Positions 16,828 through 24,985 of a stretch of 64,000 bases of DNA are shown here, one piece after another. The first letter of the stretch is position 1. Every line of letters begins with the position of its first letter. Position numbers and translations under genes: made by a program. The stretch is from Amoeboaphelidium occidentale (taxonomy: Eukaryota). The stretch lies in assembly GCA_023515795.1 (NCBI GenBank), contig JALGPX010000064.1:1-64000 (forward strand), given 5' to 3'. The notes beneath the pieces were generated by a model. That model saw only the letters and a list, made by a program, of their open reading frames with translations, was not told the DNA's origin and made no database searches.

Positions 16828-17952
16828 ATGTCGGTAGCTCAGCAGTCTACCTCGCCCCCTAAGAAGGGCTTCTATAATTCTGTGTTATTCGCTGTTATGT
16901 TTTACATGGGCACAAGCATCACAATGGTTTTGGCTAACAAATGGTTGCTGAAAGAGACCCCAGACATTCCGTTGACTCTTCTTTGGCTTCAAATAGTCGT
17001 CGCTGTGCTTTTAATCGCTGTAACTCATGCTTTCGGAATATTGAGCTTCAATGACACAGAAGCACCGGAAATTATAACATCGTCTTATTCAACCTCTGCG
17101 ATCTCGCGCAGCTTTCGGTCATTCTTCAAATCCCGTGTACCTCGAACGGAAGCAAGAATTTCTAAAAGTTTGGGCCCTTTAATTGCCGTTAATGTTGTTG
17201 GATTATCGTTGAATACCTTATGCTTGAAGTGGATTGATGCTTCAATGTATCAGGTTGCTAGATCACTGATTCTTCCGTTTACTGTGATATTTCAATACTT
17301 GTTTCTTAAGAACCCTTCTTCTATTGGAGTTATATTATCATGCGCAATCGTGTGTTGTGGATTCTTTGTTGGAATGATCTTTGGTGAAGGTTCTAATGAT
17401 CAAAGGCAAACTGATAATGGTGGTTCTTTCGTTGGTATTTTGTTTGGATTATTAAGTAGCATTACTACAGCTTTACACGCAATTATTATAAAATCTAGTA
17501 TGGATATTGTGAGAGGAAATACGATGGTCTTGGTATGGTACAATAATTTGTTGAGCGCTGTGTTCTTACTGCCCATCATAATATTCTCTGGTGAAATTAT
17601 AAGTGTTTACAAGATGTTTGGAAGCGATACTGTTAACTGGTCTTCTCTGTTACTCGGCACAATTGTTACAGGAGTGTTTGGATTCTTGATCAACATTGCA
17701 GGTTTCTTGCAAATTAAAGTCACTTCTCCAATTACTCATATGATATCATCTGCTGTTAGGGGAGTTCTTCAAACTTTCTTGGCTGTGTGGCTATTCAGCG
17801 AGATATTGACGGCGAATCGTATGATGGGCATTGTTTTGATTCTAGGCGGGAGCAGCGCATACACGTGGCTGAAGAGTACTGAACATGCATCCAGCGCTGC
17901 AACACAGAAAAGCTCTTCCGTTAATGAATTGAAAGTTTCAGTCGAAAAATAA
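16828..17952 (+). CDS. Nucleotide-sugar transporter (SLC35C1/GDP-fucose transporter-like)
   Basis: About 10 TM helices; ASMYQVARSLILPF and LQIKVTSPITHMISS motifs. Confidence 0.85.
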   Translation: MSVAQQSTSPPKKGFYNSVLFAVMFYMGTSITMVLANKWLLKETPDIPLTLLWLQIVVAVLLIAVTHAFGILSFNDTEAPEIITSSYSTSAISRSFRSFFKSRVPRTEARISKSLGPLIAVNVVGLSLNTLCLKWIDASMYQVARSLILPFTVIFQYLFLKNPSSIGVILSCAIVCCGFFVGMIFGEGSNDQRQTDNGGSFVGILFGLLSSITTALHAIIIKSSMDIVRGNTMVLVWYNNLLSAVFLLPIIIFSGEIISVYKMFGSDTVNWSSLLLGTIVTGVFGFLINIAGFLQIKVTSPITHMISSAVRGVLQTFLAVWLFSEILTANRMMGIVLILGGSSAYTWLKSTEHASSAATQKSSSVNELKVSVEK

Positions 17953-18222: not shown

Positions 18223-19423
18223 CTATTGTTCCAGCTTCAAGTATTGCTCCACAGTCTTCATATCGCAAATCCACACGTCGTTATGCGGTCCTTTCAGATC
18301 CATGCCACCAATAATTACCAATACATCGTTGCCGCTGTCATCTTTTGTTATAGAAATGGTATGATCAACTCTTTCCGGGATGTTTTCAAGAGGAATCTGC
18401 AACCATTTGATATCAACTAGACATGATTAGCTTCAATAGATTGCGATTACCTGTATCGAATGCCCACAAGTCATTAAAGACTCTAACCTTTTTCTGAGAT
18501 GTGTCTAGACCGCCCGAAATGAAAAAGTATCGATCTCCGTAAGCGACACAGGAATGACCAGATCGTGCAGGCGGTTTCACAGCAAACCCGTCAACTTTCT
18601 CCCATGCATTCTGATCACAATGATAAACCCATAAATCATCAGGAAGTTTCTGATTTGCTTCAATTCCTCCGTGCAACCAAATCTTATCGCCAACTGTGAC
18701 GAATGAGTGACCGAATCGCGCAGATGGTCCGTTGCTTGTAACAAATCGTATCCAGCACTCATTAGCAATATCAAATATCCAAACGCAATTCTCTTGTACC
18801 GGGCAATGATCTAAAGAACCTCCGGAAAACATGAATAATCTTCCTTTGCTTCCTACATTAGGAACCAACGCCAAGCCATCATGCATTGTTCTTCCTTCAG
18901 GTACGTATTTACCTTTTGGTTCAATTCTAGTAAACGCGAGTGTCTTTAAAGAGAATTTGTAGAAGGATGCGTCCAAGACATTCTGTTGAACGGAGCCAGC
19001 ATACAAGGAAACTTGACCATTCGCTTCATCAAAAGCGCAGCCGTGCTCATACCTCACAGAAGGCCAGTCTTCTGCCAACTTGTTATCCAGTTTAATGCAT
19101 TCTCCGCTAAGAGTAATTATGTAAGCGTCGTTCATGGCTCCTTCTTTACTCGCTCCGAACAGTAACAGACCACAATTGACATCAGACTCCTCTGAAACTG
19201 TCGATATCTTCTGGAAATCGGATAATTTAGCTTTAAACCACGTGACGGAATGTCCACATCTCGGGGAGAATACGGAATCTTTACCAAAACTTAATTTCTG
19301 CATGAAATTGTCAAAGGCTTGGATGTCTCTGATGTTCGAATCAAAGAATACTTGATGATCGCGCACTTTGGGATGTTCAACGCCAAGACTCTCAGCCTGT
19401 AGAATTATCCCTAGACCCTTCAT
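18223..19423 (-). CDS. Kelch-repeat protein (RABEPK/p40-like); one intron near 18417-18450
   Basis: Kelch repeats (SPRCGHS, PSARFGHSF...WLHGG, PPARSGHSC...SGG); last exon carries a further repeat (VIIGG...NDVW) ending at TAG 18223-18225. Confidence 0.8.
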
Positions 19424-19648: not shown

Positions 19649-20620
19649 ATGAGCGCAGAGAGTCCAAGCAACAAGATCACCATAAACTTTGGCAAAATTA
19701 AAAAGTCAAGAAATGATGATGAAGTTCAAAAGATCAAACTTATTCTGAGACCTCCATCTCCTTCATCGAATAAAGAAGGAACAAGATCATCGAAAAGAGT
19801 CAAATCCGAGGGACCAGATGGAGCATCAGTCAATAATCCCTCATCTGATGATATAAATGAAGATTACTATGAAAATTATAATGATCACAAAGAATCGGGC
19901 GTTGATCATCACAGCAGCCCTAACAGGAACCATCTGATGCCATCTCTGTCACCGCAACCACTAGAAAAGTCTATAGGTGATGATGAAGATGACGATGATA
20001 ATGGAGATGCAACATCTATTGAAGAATCTAAAGCAAATTTATTCATGAGTGGTACTGCAAGGCAGAACGATGATGAAACACCGTCGAAAGATCGAAGATT
20101 GAACATGGCCTTTCTTAAAACAGCAAATTACTCTTCAAACAGTCTGACACAAGAGGACCCTGGTACTCCTTTCAGCCCGAAATCTCCTGGAAGATTCTTT
20201 AGTATTGATAAGCGCAAGACTCATCCTGTCAGGGCAATACCTCAAGCTTCGTCTTTACAGCAACGCATCGAACATCAAATCATCCGGCTTGAATTTATTG
20301 ATGATAATTCGGAAGATCATTCATACTCAAACCAAGATGCATACCTCAAAACGCTTTTGACTCATTATCGCTCAAAGAATGATATTCACAGGATCAGGAT
20401 GAGACGAAGACATGAAAGGATCATGTCAAGAAACGTCGAGATGGAAAACGCTTACGAGCAAGAAAGTTTGAGTAGGTCAGCTAGAAGAGCAGCGAGAGGT
20501 TCTGTTGATTATTCATATGGCGATACAGAACCTGAAGTACAAGAGAGTCTACAACAACCTGTTAAAAAGAAGAGAGGTCGTGGAAGACCACCAAAAAATC
20601 CGCCGGTAGAGCAATACTAA
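19649..20620 (+). CDS. Low-complexity nuclear protein with C-terminal AT-hook
   Basis: KKKRGRGRPPK AT-hook/NLS; S/D/N-rich disorder. Confidence 0.65.
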   Translation: MSAESPSNKITINFGKIKKSRNDDEVQKIKLILRPPSPSSNKEGTRSSKRVKSEGPDGASVNNPSSDDINEDYYENYNDHKESGVDHHSSPNRNHLMPSLSPQPLEKSIGDDEDDDDNGDATSIEESKANLFMSGTARQNDDETPSKDRRLNMAFLKTANYSSNSLTQEDPGTPFSPKSPGRFFSIDKRKTHPVRAIPQASSLQQRIEHQIIRLEFIDDNSEDHSYSNQDAYLKTLLTHYRSKNDIHRIRMRRRHERIMSRNVEMENAYEQESLSRSARRAARGSVDYSYGDTEPEVQESLQQPVKKKRGRGRPPKNPPVEQY

Positions 20621-20774
20621 TACAAATCTAATAGATCTCATTCTAGTTTCATAGCAACTTTATATTGTTTGAGTTTGAATTTATGGCTTGAAACCATATG
20701 CTTCTCTGAGAGTAAGGTTGCCGCAAGCCGGCTTGTCAAGCCGACGCGCAGCATTCAAAAATAGATAGTAAAAA

Positions 20775-20890
20775 ACAAAAATTACCTGTTACCTTAACCT
20801 GATACTCCTATGAGTACCGATTCTGCGGTCTTGCGACTGGGTGTAGCCACCAGATTCTCCCGAAGGAGAGCTCACGATTTTGTAAACACT
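20775..20890 (-). ncRNA. Candidate Fanzor2 omegaRNA overlapping the ORF 3' end (second copy about 20977-21073)
   Basis: Minus-strand hairpins TCTCC-TTCG-GGAGA, GGTG-GCTA-CACC, GTC-GCAA-GAC and GGTACTC-ATAG-GAGTATC abut the putative element end; compensatory pair between the copies. Confidence 0.7.
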
Positions 20891-22940
20891 GGATTCCAAA
20901 ATCTTGATCATGATATTTCTTGCTGCATTCATGTCTCGATCAAACTTGAAGCCACATCTAAATGATTTGTTGCCANTTAACCTGATACTCCTGGAAGTAC
21001 CGATTCTGCGGTCTTGCGACTGGGTGAAGCCACCAGATCCTCCCGAAGGAGGGCTTATGATGTTGTAACCACTGGATTCCAAAATCTTGATCATGATATT
21101 TCTTGCTGCATTCATGTCTCGATCAAACTTGAAGCCACATCTAAATGATTTGTTGCCACCGAGTTTGTGGTTGATTCTCCCACATAACCCACAACACTTT
21201 GATGTGTACTCTTCAGTCACAACATGCACTACACAGTTTGGAGTTTGTTTTGCCTTCAGTAGCAAACGGTTTTTGAATTTGGAGTGTGACCAGTTTAGCA
21301 TGTTTCTTGCTATTTGGAATTAATTTTTCGATTAGCTTTCTTAACCATTCTGCTGACTTCAAACGTTGGTATCATTATTACATTATAGGATTTGGTCAGA
21401 TGACTTACCAACTTGCCATGTAGGTCGTCGACTAGATTCTTAATGCGCTGCCGATTCCTTTGAATTGCTGAATTCATACGTTGCCTTTTGGTCCTGTATG
21501 ATCGACCCTTTCGAAACTTAAATGCTTTGGAAATAAGTTTGTCCATGTTTAGACAGAGTTTAGCTAAACTTTGGAAGTATCCCTTTCCTACTTCCGTGAA
21601 AATGCCTTGGAGATCATNNNNNNNNNNNNNNNNNNGTCCTGTATGATCGACCCTTTCGAAACTTAAATGCTTTGGAAACAAGTGTGTCCATGTTTAGACA
21701 GAGTTTAGCTAAACTTTGGAAGTATCCCTTTCCTACTTCCGTGAAAATGCCTTGGAGATCATATAAAGTCTGGAAAGTGCGAACCCCAGGATCCAAAGCC
21801 ACAACATGATTCTGTGCTGGAGCCGGTTGCTGTTTGATTGTGTGTGAATGGAAAGCATATATAGAAGTTGTTCGGTTGTTTCCACTTGATAGTCAACATT
21901 CTTGTTACTTTATCTGGAAAATGGCCACTATCATGATCAGCAAGAATATCTTGAATGCGCCTGAATTCTTGTTCGGAATAGATTTCAATATCTCCAGGGA
22001 AGTTTCTAAAGGGCAGCTTCAAACCAAACTTCTTCTGTTCAGTTCCTTTGGTTGTATCCGTCTATTTCACCATTGTCAAACTGGAACCGTTTTGAGTAAA
22101 GCCGATCGAATGATTGCGATCCTTCTTTCGCTTATAACACATAGTGTAATTAAAGGATTTCCTTTGCGCCGGCAGTGTCTGTTTTGTTGCTTTGATAGAA
22201 GAAACCAATTCATGTGCAGTCTCTGCTTTGATTGAAACAAGACACCATGAGTTATCGTACCTCCAACTCCTTGTCTCCCTTTCAGCTTCGATGTCTCTGT
22301 TTTCTTTGTTTCTGCCAAGCAAAAAATCGCGTAAGGCATGCCAATTCTTCTTATGGTTGTGCTTGTAAATCAAATCCAAGCCTGCATTCTAAATCGCACT
22401 ACTAATTTCAAAGTATCGTTTGAGGCATTCTTTTTGATCAGAGCTCGGTTGAATTCTTACTCTTGCGGCATTGATTATCTGATCGCTTTGGAGTTCGGTC
22501 TTCATTCGTTTGTAAATTTTCTTTTGATGCTGAGACATGGTAGATTGAAATGGCTTGTTGGGTTTTGAAGGACCTGTTGATAGAGCAGCTCGTTGAAGAG
22601 TATGTGGTTCAGGTGGATCATCATGATCTTCGACATTGATTTGAAGTAAAGCCAACGGTTCATAACGATTTACGGAGCACCAAGACATGGATGAATGGGA
22701 GTGAAGTAATTAAGCCGCTGCTGCGCCAGATGGATGCGTGGCTCCTGAGTTGATGAAGAGCTTTTAGGAAAGAATCCTAGACTCTTCATTCCACAATGGC
22801 GCGTATTTCAACTGTTGCGCTTGTTTCGGTTGAGGAGTTGAAACAGGTTGTCTTGGAGCTGCTGTAGCTCTAGGAGTTCTCTTGCGAGTCTGATAAGGTT
22901 TGTGCTTTGGTTTCTTATGCGATCTTGTGATAACAGGCAT
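20789..22940 (-). pseudogene. Disrupted Fanzor2 (IS607-TnpB-like) endonuclease gene
   Basis: Reconstructed protein: PLWNEESRILS*KLF...SWCS N-terminal motif, ARVRIQPSSDQKECLKRYF (TnpB N-terminus), RuvC-I ALDPGVRTF, RIKNLVDDLH, IPTFE (RuvC-II), TEEYTSKCCGLCG, DRDMNAARNI. In-frame stops at 22764-66, 22710-12, 22389-91 and 22062-64; frameshifts near 21840 (AC repeat) and 21313 (A run). Confidence 0.9.
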
Positions 22941-23076
22941 TGCTTAACAAAGAAAATAGCAAAATTTTGTTGAAACGATCGGACCATAGGTTTTGATTCT
23001 GCCCAATAGCTTGGTAATTGATGTTACAATACGCATGAACATTAATCACACGATATGCGCATACGCTTAAGGTTAA
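20794..23076 (-). mobile_element. Non-autonomous Fanzor2 transposon with putative TTAA target-site duplication and CCT...AGG termini
   Basis: TTAA(20794-97)|CCT at the 3' end and AGG|TTAA(23073-76) about 132 nt upstream of the ATG; the contig after N20976 starts exactly at TTAACCT; no transposase inside. Confidence 0.55.
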
Positions 23077-23723
23077 AGTAGACCATCAATAACAATAAAT
23101 CTGTTTTAGTACGGAAAATTATTTAAGTTACTGTCGGTTTCATTTTTGTCGCAATTAGTCATGNTGGTTCAGGTGGATCATCATGATCTTCGACATTGAT
23201 TTGAAGTAAAGCCAACGGTTCATAACGATTTACGGAGCACCAAGACGTGGATGAATGGGAGTGAAGTAATTGAGCCGCTGCTGCGCCAGATGGATGCGTG
23301 GCTCCTGAGTTGATGAAGAGCTTTTAGGAAAGAATCCTAGACTCTTCATTCCACAATGGCGCGTATTTCAACTGTTGCGCTTGTTTCGGTTGAGGAGTTG
23401 AAACAGGTTGTCTTGGAGCTGCTGTAGCTCTAGGAGTTCTCTTGCGAGTCTGATAAGGTTTGTGCTTTGGTTTCTTATGCGATCTTGTGATAACAGGCAT
23501 TGCTTAATAAAGAAAATAGCAAAATTTTGTTGAAACGATCGGACCATAGGTTTTGATTCTGCCCAATAGCTTGGTAATTGATGTTACAATACGCATGAAC
23601 ATTAATCACACGATATGCGCATACGCTTAAGGTTAAAGTAGACCATTAATAACAATAAATCTGTTTTAGTACGGAAAATTATTTAAGTTACTGTCGGTTT
23701 CATTTTTGTCGCAATTAGTCATG
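22605..23723. repeat. 559-bp near-identical direct duplication across N23164 (probable assembly overlap)
   Basis: 22605-23163 vs 23165-23723 differ at only a few SNPs, including TAA vs CAA in the Fanzor frame. Confidence 0.85.
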
Positions 23724-24985
23724 GCACCAGGTGCTTAAGGCCCTTTTGTCATCTTTAAAGACACTAAAGATAGCCCTTTACGGCTTCAAATAAATAAAAG
23801 ACGTAAATATCGACTTGAAACGAGAAGAGTTCTAAATGTTTCGATAGTTTTTGCATGAGATCAAACATCAGNNNNNNNNNNNNNNNNNNNNNTCTTTAAA
23901 GACACTAAAGATAGCCCTTTACGGCTTCAAATAAACAAAAGACGTAAATATCGACTTGAAACGAGAAGAGTTCTAAATGTTTCGATAGTTTTTGCATGAG
24001 ATCAAACATCAGGCTGAAACAACACCACTAACACGCCATTAGTTGCAACACTTTAAGCGTAATTTAACGAAATAATAAGCAAAGACTCACGCCTATGTCT
24101 CCTAGAGGAAGCGCTTTAGAACTGGTCTGGATATTCCGCTGAAACCACTTTGGCCATGTAAATGCTGGGCTTATACAATATAGTTGAAACTCTGCAGTTA
24201 ACCTTTTAAACCGATTCTATTGCAATATTCGCGCTTAGCATCTCATGGTTCGCCTTTGTTGTCGTTTATTCAGAACCTTTTAATCATGGATTGAAACTCA
24301 AAAGAAATGCCTGATCAACTTGTTTCAACGTCTTTCAGCGCATTGACCGCATCACCAGAGGAGCAACATACTGCTACGCGATGTGATCTGCAGTGGTAGT
24401 ATCCAAATAGTTGCTATTAGAAGTTCTGAATACAATAAAGGCGTGCAACATTCTCCAAAGTATCACGGCCAAATAGAAGTTTCAGCAGTAGCAAAAGAAC
24501 TGATAGAATGGTCTCTGTGAGATACTTTCATCTAAATCTCCAGCAAATTTCCGTGAATATCTTCTTTTCATATTACTCGTTATCCTTCTTGATAGTAAAT
24601 TTTCTCCAAATATCGATTAAGTTCTGCAAACTTATAACAAGATGAACAGATGCTTATGTGACAAAAGTAAAGAAGTGTATGCATAGTAAAACTATCCAGA
24701 GCACGTAAGCATAAGAGTGTAACAGTAACAGATTTTAGAGCTATCACTGCAAAAGAACGGTGCAAGCATGGCAGACGTTTCAAGGAGAAAGAGCTGCAGT
24801 CCAAAAGAGCATTGATAATCTGTAGAACATCTCAGTAGAGGAAGAGATTACGAAAATGAACGTTTATTTAGCAATATCAATATGCAACATTAATTGTTGA
24901 AAAAAGCTTGTCTCGTCTTGTCTTGATTCGTCTTGCGGCAACCTGATGTAACACTGATCGGACTTAGCGCTAAGATTTGTTCAAG

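Follow-up and report, generated by a model that had tools for sequence, protein, structure and literature searches.

A broken Fanzor2-type gene and pair-preserving variation in its predicted omegaRNA scaffold

Three described systems stand closest to the locus analyzed here. The mimivirus Fanzor2 named ApmFz2 or ApmFNuc (PDB 9B0L) lies in an IS607 element and has a DPG motif, a shifted RuvC-II glutamate, and structure conservation that reaches into the open reading frame (ORF) (PMC11832414, PMC10530073); its 205-nt scaffold extends to the right end and contains a pseudoknot (PMC11832414). In the cut-and-paste elements with Fanzor2* of molluscs and Chloropicon primus, Fanzor2 sits between short degenerate terminal inverted repeats (TIRs), and the repeat and target duplication are predicted to lie within the RNA scaffold (PMC10711439). 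TA-ending target motifs have been reported for the mussel and snail enzymes (PMC10530073). Spu-1 of Spizellomyces punctatus, with its ghost elements, is a multicopy family with inverted repeats and a TA duplication, whose scaffold subfamilies differ in their stems (PMC10432273, PMC3627910). More generally, Fanzor RNAs span the right end, run 14 to 15 nt into the variable flank, and may overlap the ORF (PMC10432273), and TnpB cuts the excision site, after which the element is restored by gene conversion, as shown for bacterial elements (review PMC13565253).

The window, that is, the whole stretch of 64,000 nt analyzed here, contains a Fanzor2 gene that shares with ApmFz2 the DPG motif, the shifted glutamate, structure conservation reaching into the ORF, and a long scaffold running to the right end, for which about 180 to 190 nt are predicted. 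Unlike ApmFz2, it comes with no detected serine recombinase, its element ends in TA and not GGG, the gene copy is broken, the predicted scaffold takes in about 30 codons, and no convincing pseudoknot was found. It resembles Fanzor2* in its candidate short degenerate TIRs, in a repeat and possible target duplication predicted to fall within the scaffold, and in a predicted TA-ending target motif; however, the host here is in appearance an early-diverging fungus or a relative, and the left end and target duplication come from one copy. With the fungal Spu-1 it has in common the multicopy state, inverted repeats, and scaffold subfamilies that differ in stems, whereas SpuFz1 is a Fanzor1 whose scaffold, 75 nt long, lies downstream of the stop codon (PMC10432273, PMC3627910). 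Fanzor2 proteins, omegaRNAs, overlap with the ORF, and inverted-repeat hosts have all been published already. A search of titles and abstract openings found neither covariation in a Fanzor2 scaffold family nor a fungal Fanzor2*, and supplementary Fanzor tables may already list the family.

The Fanzor2 gene and its decay

20789..22943, minus strand: Fanzor2 pseudogene with DPG, a glutamate six residues before the zinc finger, and DRD; decayed

The minus-strand ORF extends from an ATG at 22943 to a stop at 20789 and encodes a TnpB-family protein (PF07282, E 5.7e-13; NF040570). A DPG motif is described as characteristic of Fanzor proteins, as is a glutamate placed six residues ahead of the zinc finger (PMC10711439), and both were found. 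The DPG lies in ALDPGVRTF, in a minus-strand frame near 21800, and is shared by 20/20 relatives; the RuvC-II glutamate stands six residues before the zinc finger (EEYTSKCCGLC), and the RuvC-III DRD is also present. The frame is interrupted by four in-frame stops (22764, 22710, 22389, and 22062) and, in the unspliced DNA, by two frame changes near 21840 and 21312. A 9-nt deletion after 21130, found again at the matching place in copy A of the doubled stretch described below, removes part of the second cysteine pair of the zinc finger. Neither an intact C4 zinc finger nor an uninterrupted ORF, as expected of an active nuclease, exists at this locus, which holds a broken Fanzor2-type RuvC nuclease gene from which the protein cannot be made. 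In family contigs from public DNA runs, the 9 nt are present and the frameshift at 21312 is absent. The functional omegaRNA put forward in the initial annotation was retained in part: the word functional cannot extend to the protein of this broken locus, and a structured RNA stands as a candidate on the evidence of other copies. At 22710 to 22712, one copy of a contig overlap reads a stop and the other, at 23270 to 23272, reads CAA, so the two haplotypes differ in the extent of Fanzor2 gene decay.

The closest relative, P0001 (344 amino acids, from a JGI contig), was 58% identical. Its best match among solved structures was 9B0L, the mimivirus Fanzor2 (E 3.1e-24, with the next match at 1.2e-16), and no Fanzor1 chain was among its 12 solved-structure matches at E 0.1; assignment to Fanzor2 rather than Fanzor1 is made through this best match of P0001. 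The window's own 114-amino-acid piece matched Cas12f-like chains first (1.4e-6) and 9B0L at 3e-4, and a Chlorella virus protein was among the matches. In the viral contigs searched, neither the window piece nor P0001 had a relative. Metagenome contigs yielded one locus among 108 candidate stretches; it is 48% identical, its ORF ends right after the RuvC-III motif, and it gave no DNA match to the scaffold.

The C-terminal tail of P0001 comprises 34 homologous residues after the RNI motif, and those of the other relatives (18 in which the motif was found) comprise 8 to 28. The P0001 tail is of the same kind, across the scaffold region. Protein-level constraint on the tail was considered and rejected. 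The part that varies between copies A and B shares the ORF reading frame, and 7/7 changed codons alter the amino acid, so it is not the tail peptide that is constrained; copies shortened by 7 and 8 nt, possibly noncoding, exist as well.

Ends of the element and its surroundings

20713..20730, plus strand: right end, TA (20713-14) followed by the terminal repeat (20715-20730)
20789..20791, minus strand: stop codon of the Fanzor2 ORF, lying 76 nt inside the end; TAA here, with TAG in the corresponding position of family contigs
20692..20712, minus strand: predicted guide region in the host flank, which differs between copies; by analogy with known Fanzor RNAs
24929..24944, minus strand: candidate left TIR, matching the right end at 13/13 and then 15/16 bases; preceded by TC, not TA

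Other copies of the element were observed through contigs of public DNA runs mapped onto the window (X1 to X4 and X6 at 20713). At 20713, four X1, two X2, three X3, two X6, and one X4 contigs left the window into unrelated flanks, and TA was present at the right end in all flanked contigs; a conserved structured region is followed here by a variable flank. The initial annotation had ended the element at TTAA (20794), with the stop codon outside it and with an RNA that ends 15 to 20 nt past TTAA. All three positions had to be moved: family contigs continue to 20713, the stop falls inside the element, and the predicted guide begins only after 20713. TTAA as a target duplication of the piggyBac kind was likewise rejected because the family sequence runs on past it. 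Near the stop, the family differs from copy A by T>C at 20789 and C>T at 20793.

The same insertion site was bridged by X2 and X6 contigs that differ from the window at 10/351 and 26/389 letters, respectively, so the insertion is old. The Fanzor2 family is multicopy, apparently with more intact members; the summed depth for 20713-20770 reaches 8177 but counts overlapping contigs together, and it was therefore not read as a copy number. Contigs containing only the last 41 to 44 nt, that is, the terminal hairpin (20713-20756), with unrelated sequence on both sides were also observed (X3 record 9 and X4 record 18) and may be ghost or miniature elements.

The terminal 13 bases are found one further time, in inverted orientation, at 24944, where 24929-24944 agrees with 20715-20730 at 15/16 bases. 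None of 2,000 simulated 6-kb regions (0/2000) reached a 13-base inverted match. TIRs are thus present, in one copy only, and CAAG(A/C)C occurs twice at each element end. As to a possible target duplication, TA stands at the right end and TC beside the candidate left end, the latter being taken from one copy. The candidate element measures about 3.2 kb once duplicates are discounted, and without it two host genes would lie about 130 nt apart. Judged from these DNA features, Fanzor2 probably lies in a TIR element, of which 24944 is a candidate left end read from a single copy. Within 23069-23083, and again in its duplicate at 23629-23643, a TAAGGTT reads as at the right end and in unchanged orientation, and a stretch of 12 bases there matches, inverted, the sequence that the family has at 20787-20798. 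This is possibly an alternative or internal end, or a product of chance, and a left end near 23070-23083 was ranked lower than 24944.

No transposase or recombinase was found in 23165-24944 by comparison with Pfam, NCBIfam, 1.84 billion representatives (one of six frames), and plasmids (one frame), or by looking for homologues of an 83-amino-acid ORF; this DNA is decayed and frameshifts were unbridged. For a serine recombinase of the IS607 type upstream of Fanzor2, Pfam (12 frames, 23165-24944) and NCBIfam (6 frames, 23893-24944) gave no match, and a badly decayed gene could escape these comparisons. About 1.7 kb of noncoding or decayed DNA in the candidate element (23100-24930) is without a protein match.

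The host neighborhood has a compact, intron-poor layout, with a nucleotide-sugar (GDP-fucose-like) transporter at 16828-17952 (plus strand) and a Kelch-repeat protein at 18413-19423 (minus strand). The unannotated host protein encoded at 19649-20620 (plus strand) has at its C-terminal end what we take to be an AT-hook-like motif. Among the 120 matches listed for the neighboring host gene, the best named ones were early-diverging fungi and an aphelid, at 47% identity or less. By this comparison the host appears fungus-like, without a close named relative among those 120 matches.

Two copies around an assembly gap

20794..20975, minus strand: copy A, at the left contig end; covers the 3' end of the ORF of Fanzor2 together with the 5' part of the predicted omegaRNA
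20976..20976, no strand: scaffold gap of 1 base, separating overlapping contig ends
20977..21158, minus strand: copy B, at the right contig start; scaffold type of the dominant X1 family contig except at 21027

Copies A and B aligned without gaps over 182 nt and differed at 10 positions, all within 20810-20886 (20810, 20811, 20812, 20844, 20856, 20869, 20873, 20875, 20879, and 20886); the 89 bases from 20887 to 20975 were without difference. Copy A runs on into the right end of the element and, beyond it, into the host gene at 19649-20620. Duplicated overlaps of 102 to 733 nt with 1 to 10 mismatches were present beside each of the 10 N gaps in the window (5703, 15005, 20976, 21618, 23164, 23872, 30204, 42748, 45442, and 52640). 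The nine overlaps other than that at 20976 had 1 to 5 mismatches each (18 in 2157 nt in total), and their 0.8% compares with 10 differences in 93 nt at 20976. As initially described, then, an identical RuvC part adjoins 10 differences in the structured part, and the other overlaps differ at only a few single-nucleotide polymorphisms. With a duplicated overlap at 10/10 gaps in the window, any "tandem duplicate" at a gap of this assembly is suspect, and the doubling at 20976 most likely arose in assembly.

The ten left contigs had identical tails of 78, 77, 89, 78, 76, 76, 76, 76, 77, and 171 nt; in 8/10 overlaps the left contig ended 76 to 78 nt past the last mismatch. Such a tail would correspond to the fixed overlap that arises when a heterozygous genome is assembled by a de Bruijn method, and about 76 of the 89 identical bases in A and B are likely assembler overlap, expected by construction. 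Comparing mismatches in the variable and identical parts by Fisher's test gave a P value of 0.0015 for 10/93 versus 0/89, but 0.61 when only the 13 identical bases beyond 76 were retained. The contrast with identical RuvC coding DNA, to which the initial annotation had attached meaning, is therefore weak evidence, given the likely origin of those 76 bases, and is gone over the remaining 13.

We favor the reading that A and B are the overlapping ends of two contigs and represent alleles of one old, broken Fanzor2 insertion, whose variable part is the 5' half of an omegaRNA scaffold running to 20713. The 9-nt zinc-finger deletion is common to A and B, whereas the 9 nt are present in X1, X2, X3, and X6 contigs, and the letters at 21084 and 21148 are likewise common to A and B and not in the X1 family contig; A and B therefore descend from the same damaged insertion. 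The X1 family contig, with a depth of 1014 compared with 105 for the host flank contig, carries the B letters at 20810, 20811, 20856, 20869, 20873, and 20875 and the A letter at 20844. With 12 other letters relative to A, it fits B at 9/10 sites, three of them deduced from this count, and at 21027 B has a letter of its own. The A scaffold type occurs in X4 and X6. The tract around 20810-20886 of one allele was likely overwritten by gene conversion from the dominant subfamily, and two alleles, one of them converted, would be the simplest account of A and B. No X1 contig carried the window's own letters over most of the overlap, and neither allele was seen outside the assembly. An earlier proposal of paralogs or recombinant scaffold variants holds as to recombination; paralogs are less likely than alleles, given the shared lesions absent from family contigs.

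The same RNA could also be read as coming, in B, from another locus, where the broken copy had undergone duplication or had recombined with an active one, the contigs then being joined by the scaffolder via shared sequence. The multicopy state of the family, the density of differences, far above that of the other overlaps, and the coincidence of the start of B with 20793, a private letter of A that departs from the family, agree with this. We nevertheless consider it rather unlikely, as the lesions private to A and B are shared and the remaining nine overlaps, three of them inside the element, resemble ordinary allelic bubbles; moreover, right contigs begin at variable short distances before the first mismatch, so a start at TTAA says little. 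The agreement of B with the depth-1014 contig at about 9/10 sites would also result if B were an assembly chimera, with high-depth family consensus pasted onto the locus as its left part. This is improbable, since the family-type 21069 and the locus-private 21084 are only 15 nt apart, far below the overlap of about 76 nt apparently needed, and the private letter at 21027 also argues against it; chimera or not, both scaffold types exist in public runs, and the covariation described below stands. A true tandem duplication of the scaffold, although the window displays the segments head to tail, is hardly credible: the junction is an N and the same pattern occurs at every gap in the window. No tandem junction was found in any contig or joint among the 32/121 pieces listed from four runs, and among these an X6 contig joins 20956 to 21131 as one copy.

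Folds of the predicted scaffold and their variation

20713..20900, minus strand: predicted omegaRNA scaffold, about 180 to 190 nt; fold z -2.82, 2/200 shuffles as good, and variation across copies
20856..20869, minus strand: hairpin H1 with cUUCGg loop; pair probabilities 0.90-1.0; basal pair U-A, U.G, or C-G
20840..20851, minus strand: hairpin H2 with GCUA/GCUU loop; rebuilt stems in X2, X3, and X4 loose ends
20828..20837, minus strand: hairpin H3 with GNRA loop; rebuilt stems in X2, X3, and X4 loose ends
20796..20822, minus strand: hairpin H4; loop-closing pair C-G, U.G, or A-U across copies
20719..20753, minus strand: terminal hairpin H5; z -4.13, 0/200 shuffles; plus strand z -1.49

H5 is the strongest hairpin, and its 3' arm is the right TIR. 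The last 80 nt of the element, which hold it, were absent from the initial model; over the interval used there, the fold of A had z -2.04 and that of B z -0.67, the latter no better than shuffles. For H2 and H3 (20828..20851), the pair probability in copy A alone is low (0.17-0.35). Rfam gave no match at E 5 over 20500-21500. By eye, no convincing pseudoknot partner was found; 20874-20871 could form four pairs with 20716-20713, kept in both A and B, and some copies use 20871 in H1. A 16-mer from H5 hit 15 loci in viral contigs, none of which matches the element beyond the hairpin (≤28 nt) or encodes a Fanzor relative.

On the minus strand, copy A has U-A and copy B has C-G at pair 20869/20856, the base of the cUUCGg hairpin, so the clean covariation noted at first at this pair was confirmed. 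The remaining differences had been assigned to loops or G-U pairs. This is correct for 20844 and 20810-11, which lie in loops, and for 20812/20807, which is C-G versus U.G, but some pairs do break. In the minimum-energy fold of copy A, five pairs change and two break in B (20886/20871 and 20882/20875), both in the helix just 5' of H1; in the fold of copy B, three change and one breaks in A. When 10 random substitutions were simulated in 93 nt, at least one compensatory pair arose in 10% of cases, no break in four kept helices in 1.8%, and both in 0.4%, with two of these helices chosen after the loops had been seen and the helix that breaks left out. Taken alone, A and B are suggestive, and no more, of selection on RNA.

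The structure was then compared with X1, X3, X4, and X6 contigs over 20700-20905, phased by depth values. Pair 20869/20856 was kept in all six covering contigs, two of which have a depth below 5: C-G in X1 record 8 and X6 record 32, U.G in X3 record 16 and X6 record 30, and U-A in X6 record 31 and X4 record 23. The U.G contigs gain C-G and G-C pairs below it. Pair 20812/20807 was A-U in four X3 and two X6 contigs (two X6 contigs are ambiguous at 20807) and broken in one X3 contig. One-sided changes at 20743, 20744, 20819, and 20820 were all C/U opposite G on the minus strand. Three changes broke a pair, namely, 20752 (one contig, depth 4.2), 20865 (the closing pair of the UUCG loop, depth 6.9), and 20807 with 20812 in the X3 contig. 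Overall, 8/11 distinct changes at paired sites keep the pair, versus 28 to 45% expected (P of 0.003 to 0.06, depending on transition bias), a count over related sequences with no tree correction that leaves out 20854, 20855, and ambiguous contigs. All listed indels in 20700-20905 (8/8) fall in the unpaired linker 20769-20788. In loose ends of the X2/X3/X4 subfamily, H2 has a GUAG/CUAC stem around the GCUA loop in place of the GGUG/CACC of A, amounting to two double changes, and in H3 the loop reads GAAA instead of GCAA, which keeps it a GNRA loop, and the two bases of one pair are both missing. Loose ends of X1 and X3 variants retain the UUCG hairpin with the stem region 8 and 7 nt shorter, respectively.

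Changes among copies thus mostly keep base pairs, and selection on an RNA structure overlapping the Fanzor ORF, as first proposed, gains support from the other copies and not from A and B alone. Going by sequence, the structured region is likely a real guide-RNA (omegaRNA) scaffold. An omegaRNA is predicted here from DNA alone, and hairpins could in principle be DNA features, such as inverted repeats bound by a transposase, or relics; the 3' arm of H5 is the terminal repeat, the CAAG(A/C)C motif is doubled at each end, and three changes break pairs. We regard this as improbable. The one-sided changes, C/U opposite G on the minus strand only, form a wobble pattern; the UUCG and GNRA loops are retained even where the stems differ, H1 to H4 sit 80 to 160 nt inside the end, and the folds favor the minus strand.

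With a predicted omegaRNA as the preferred reading, intact family members would transcribe through the right end, yielding an RNA composed of a scaffold of about 180 nt (the last 30 or so codons, the terminal repeat, and TA) and about 15 to 20 nt of flank as the guide. This RNA would load onto Fanzor2, which would cut the empty excision site next to a TA-ending motif, and repair of the cut would restore the element. Fanzor2 is described in inverted-repeat transposons with the repeat and target duplication inside the scaffold (PMC10711439), and by analogy we infer the same cycle of excision and restoration, with a TA-ending target motif, in this family. The U-A/C-G swap would not have been selected at the dead locus; it would be an older difference between scaffold subfamilies that passed through a U.G intermediate, the two states likely having been brought together here by gene conversion. 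A more far-reaching scenario, which we offer tentatively and think unlikely as a whole, is that a TA-targeting inverted-repeat transposon of an early-diverging fungal lineage captured Fanzor2 independently, that copies swap several interchangeable scaffold subfamilies by gene conversion, and that a dead copy thereby supplies a refreshed scaffold and its own guide to active Fanzor2 made elsewhere.

The copies form a natural covariation series for a Fanzor2 omegaRNA, with three states of one pair, deletion of a whole pair, and stems rebuilt around fixed loops, and this series shows which scaffold helices matter. The multicopy family, apparently with more intact members, offers a new Fanzor2 whose target motif is predicted to end in TA. 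If the candidate left end is true, it would place a Fanzor2 of a fungal lineage in an inverted-repeat transposon, a proposed step between Fanzor2 and Fanzor1.
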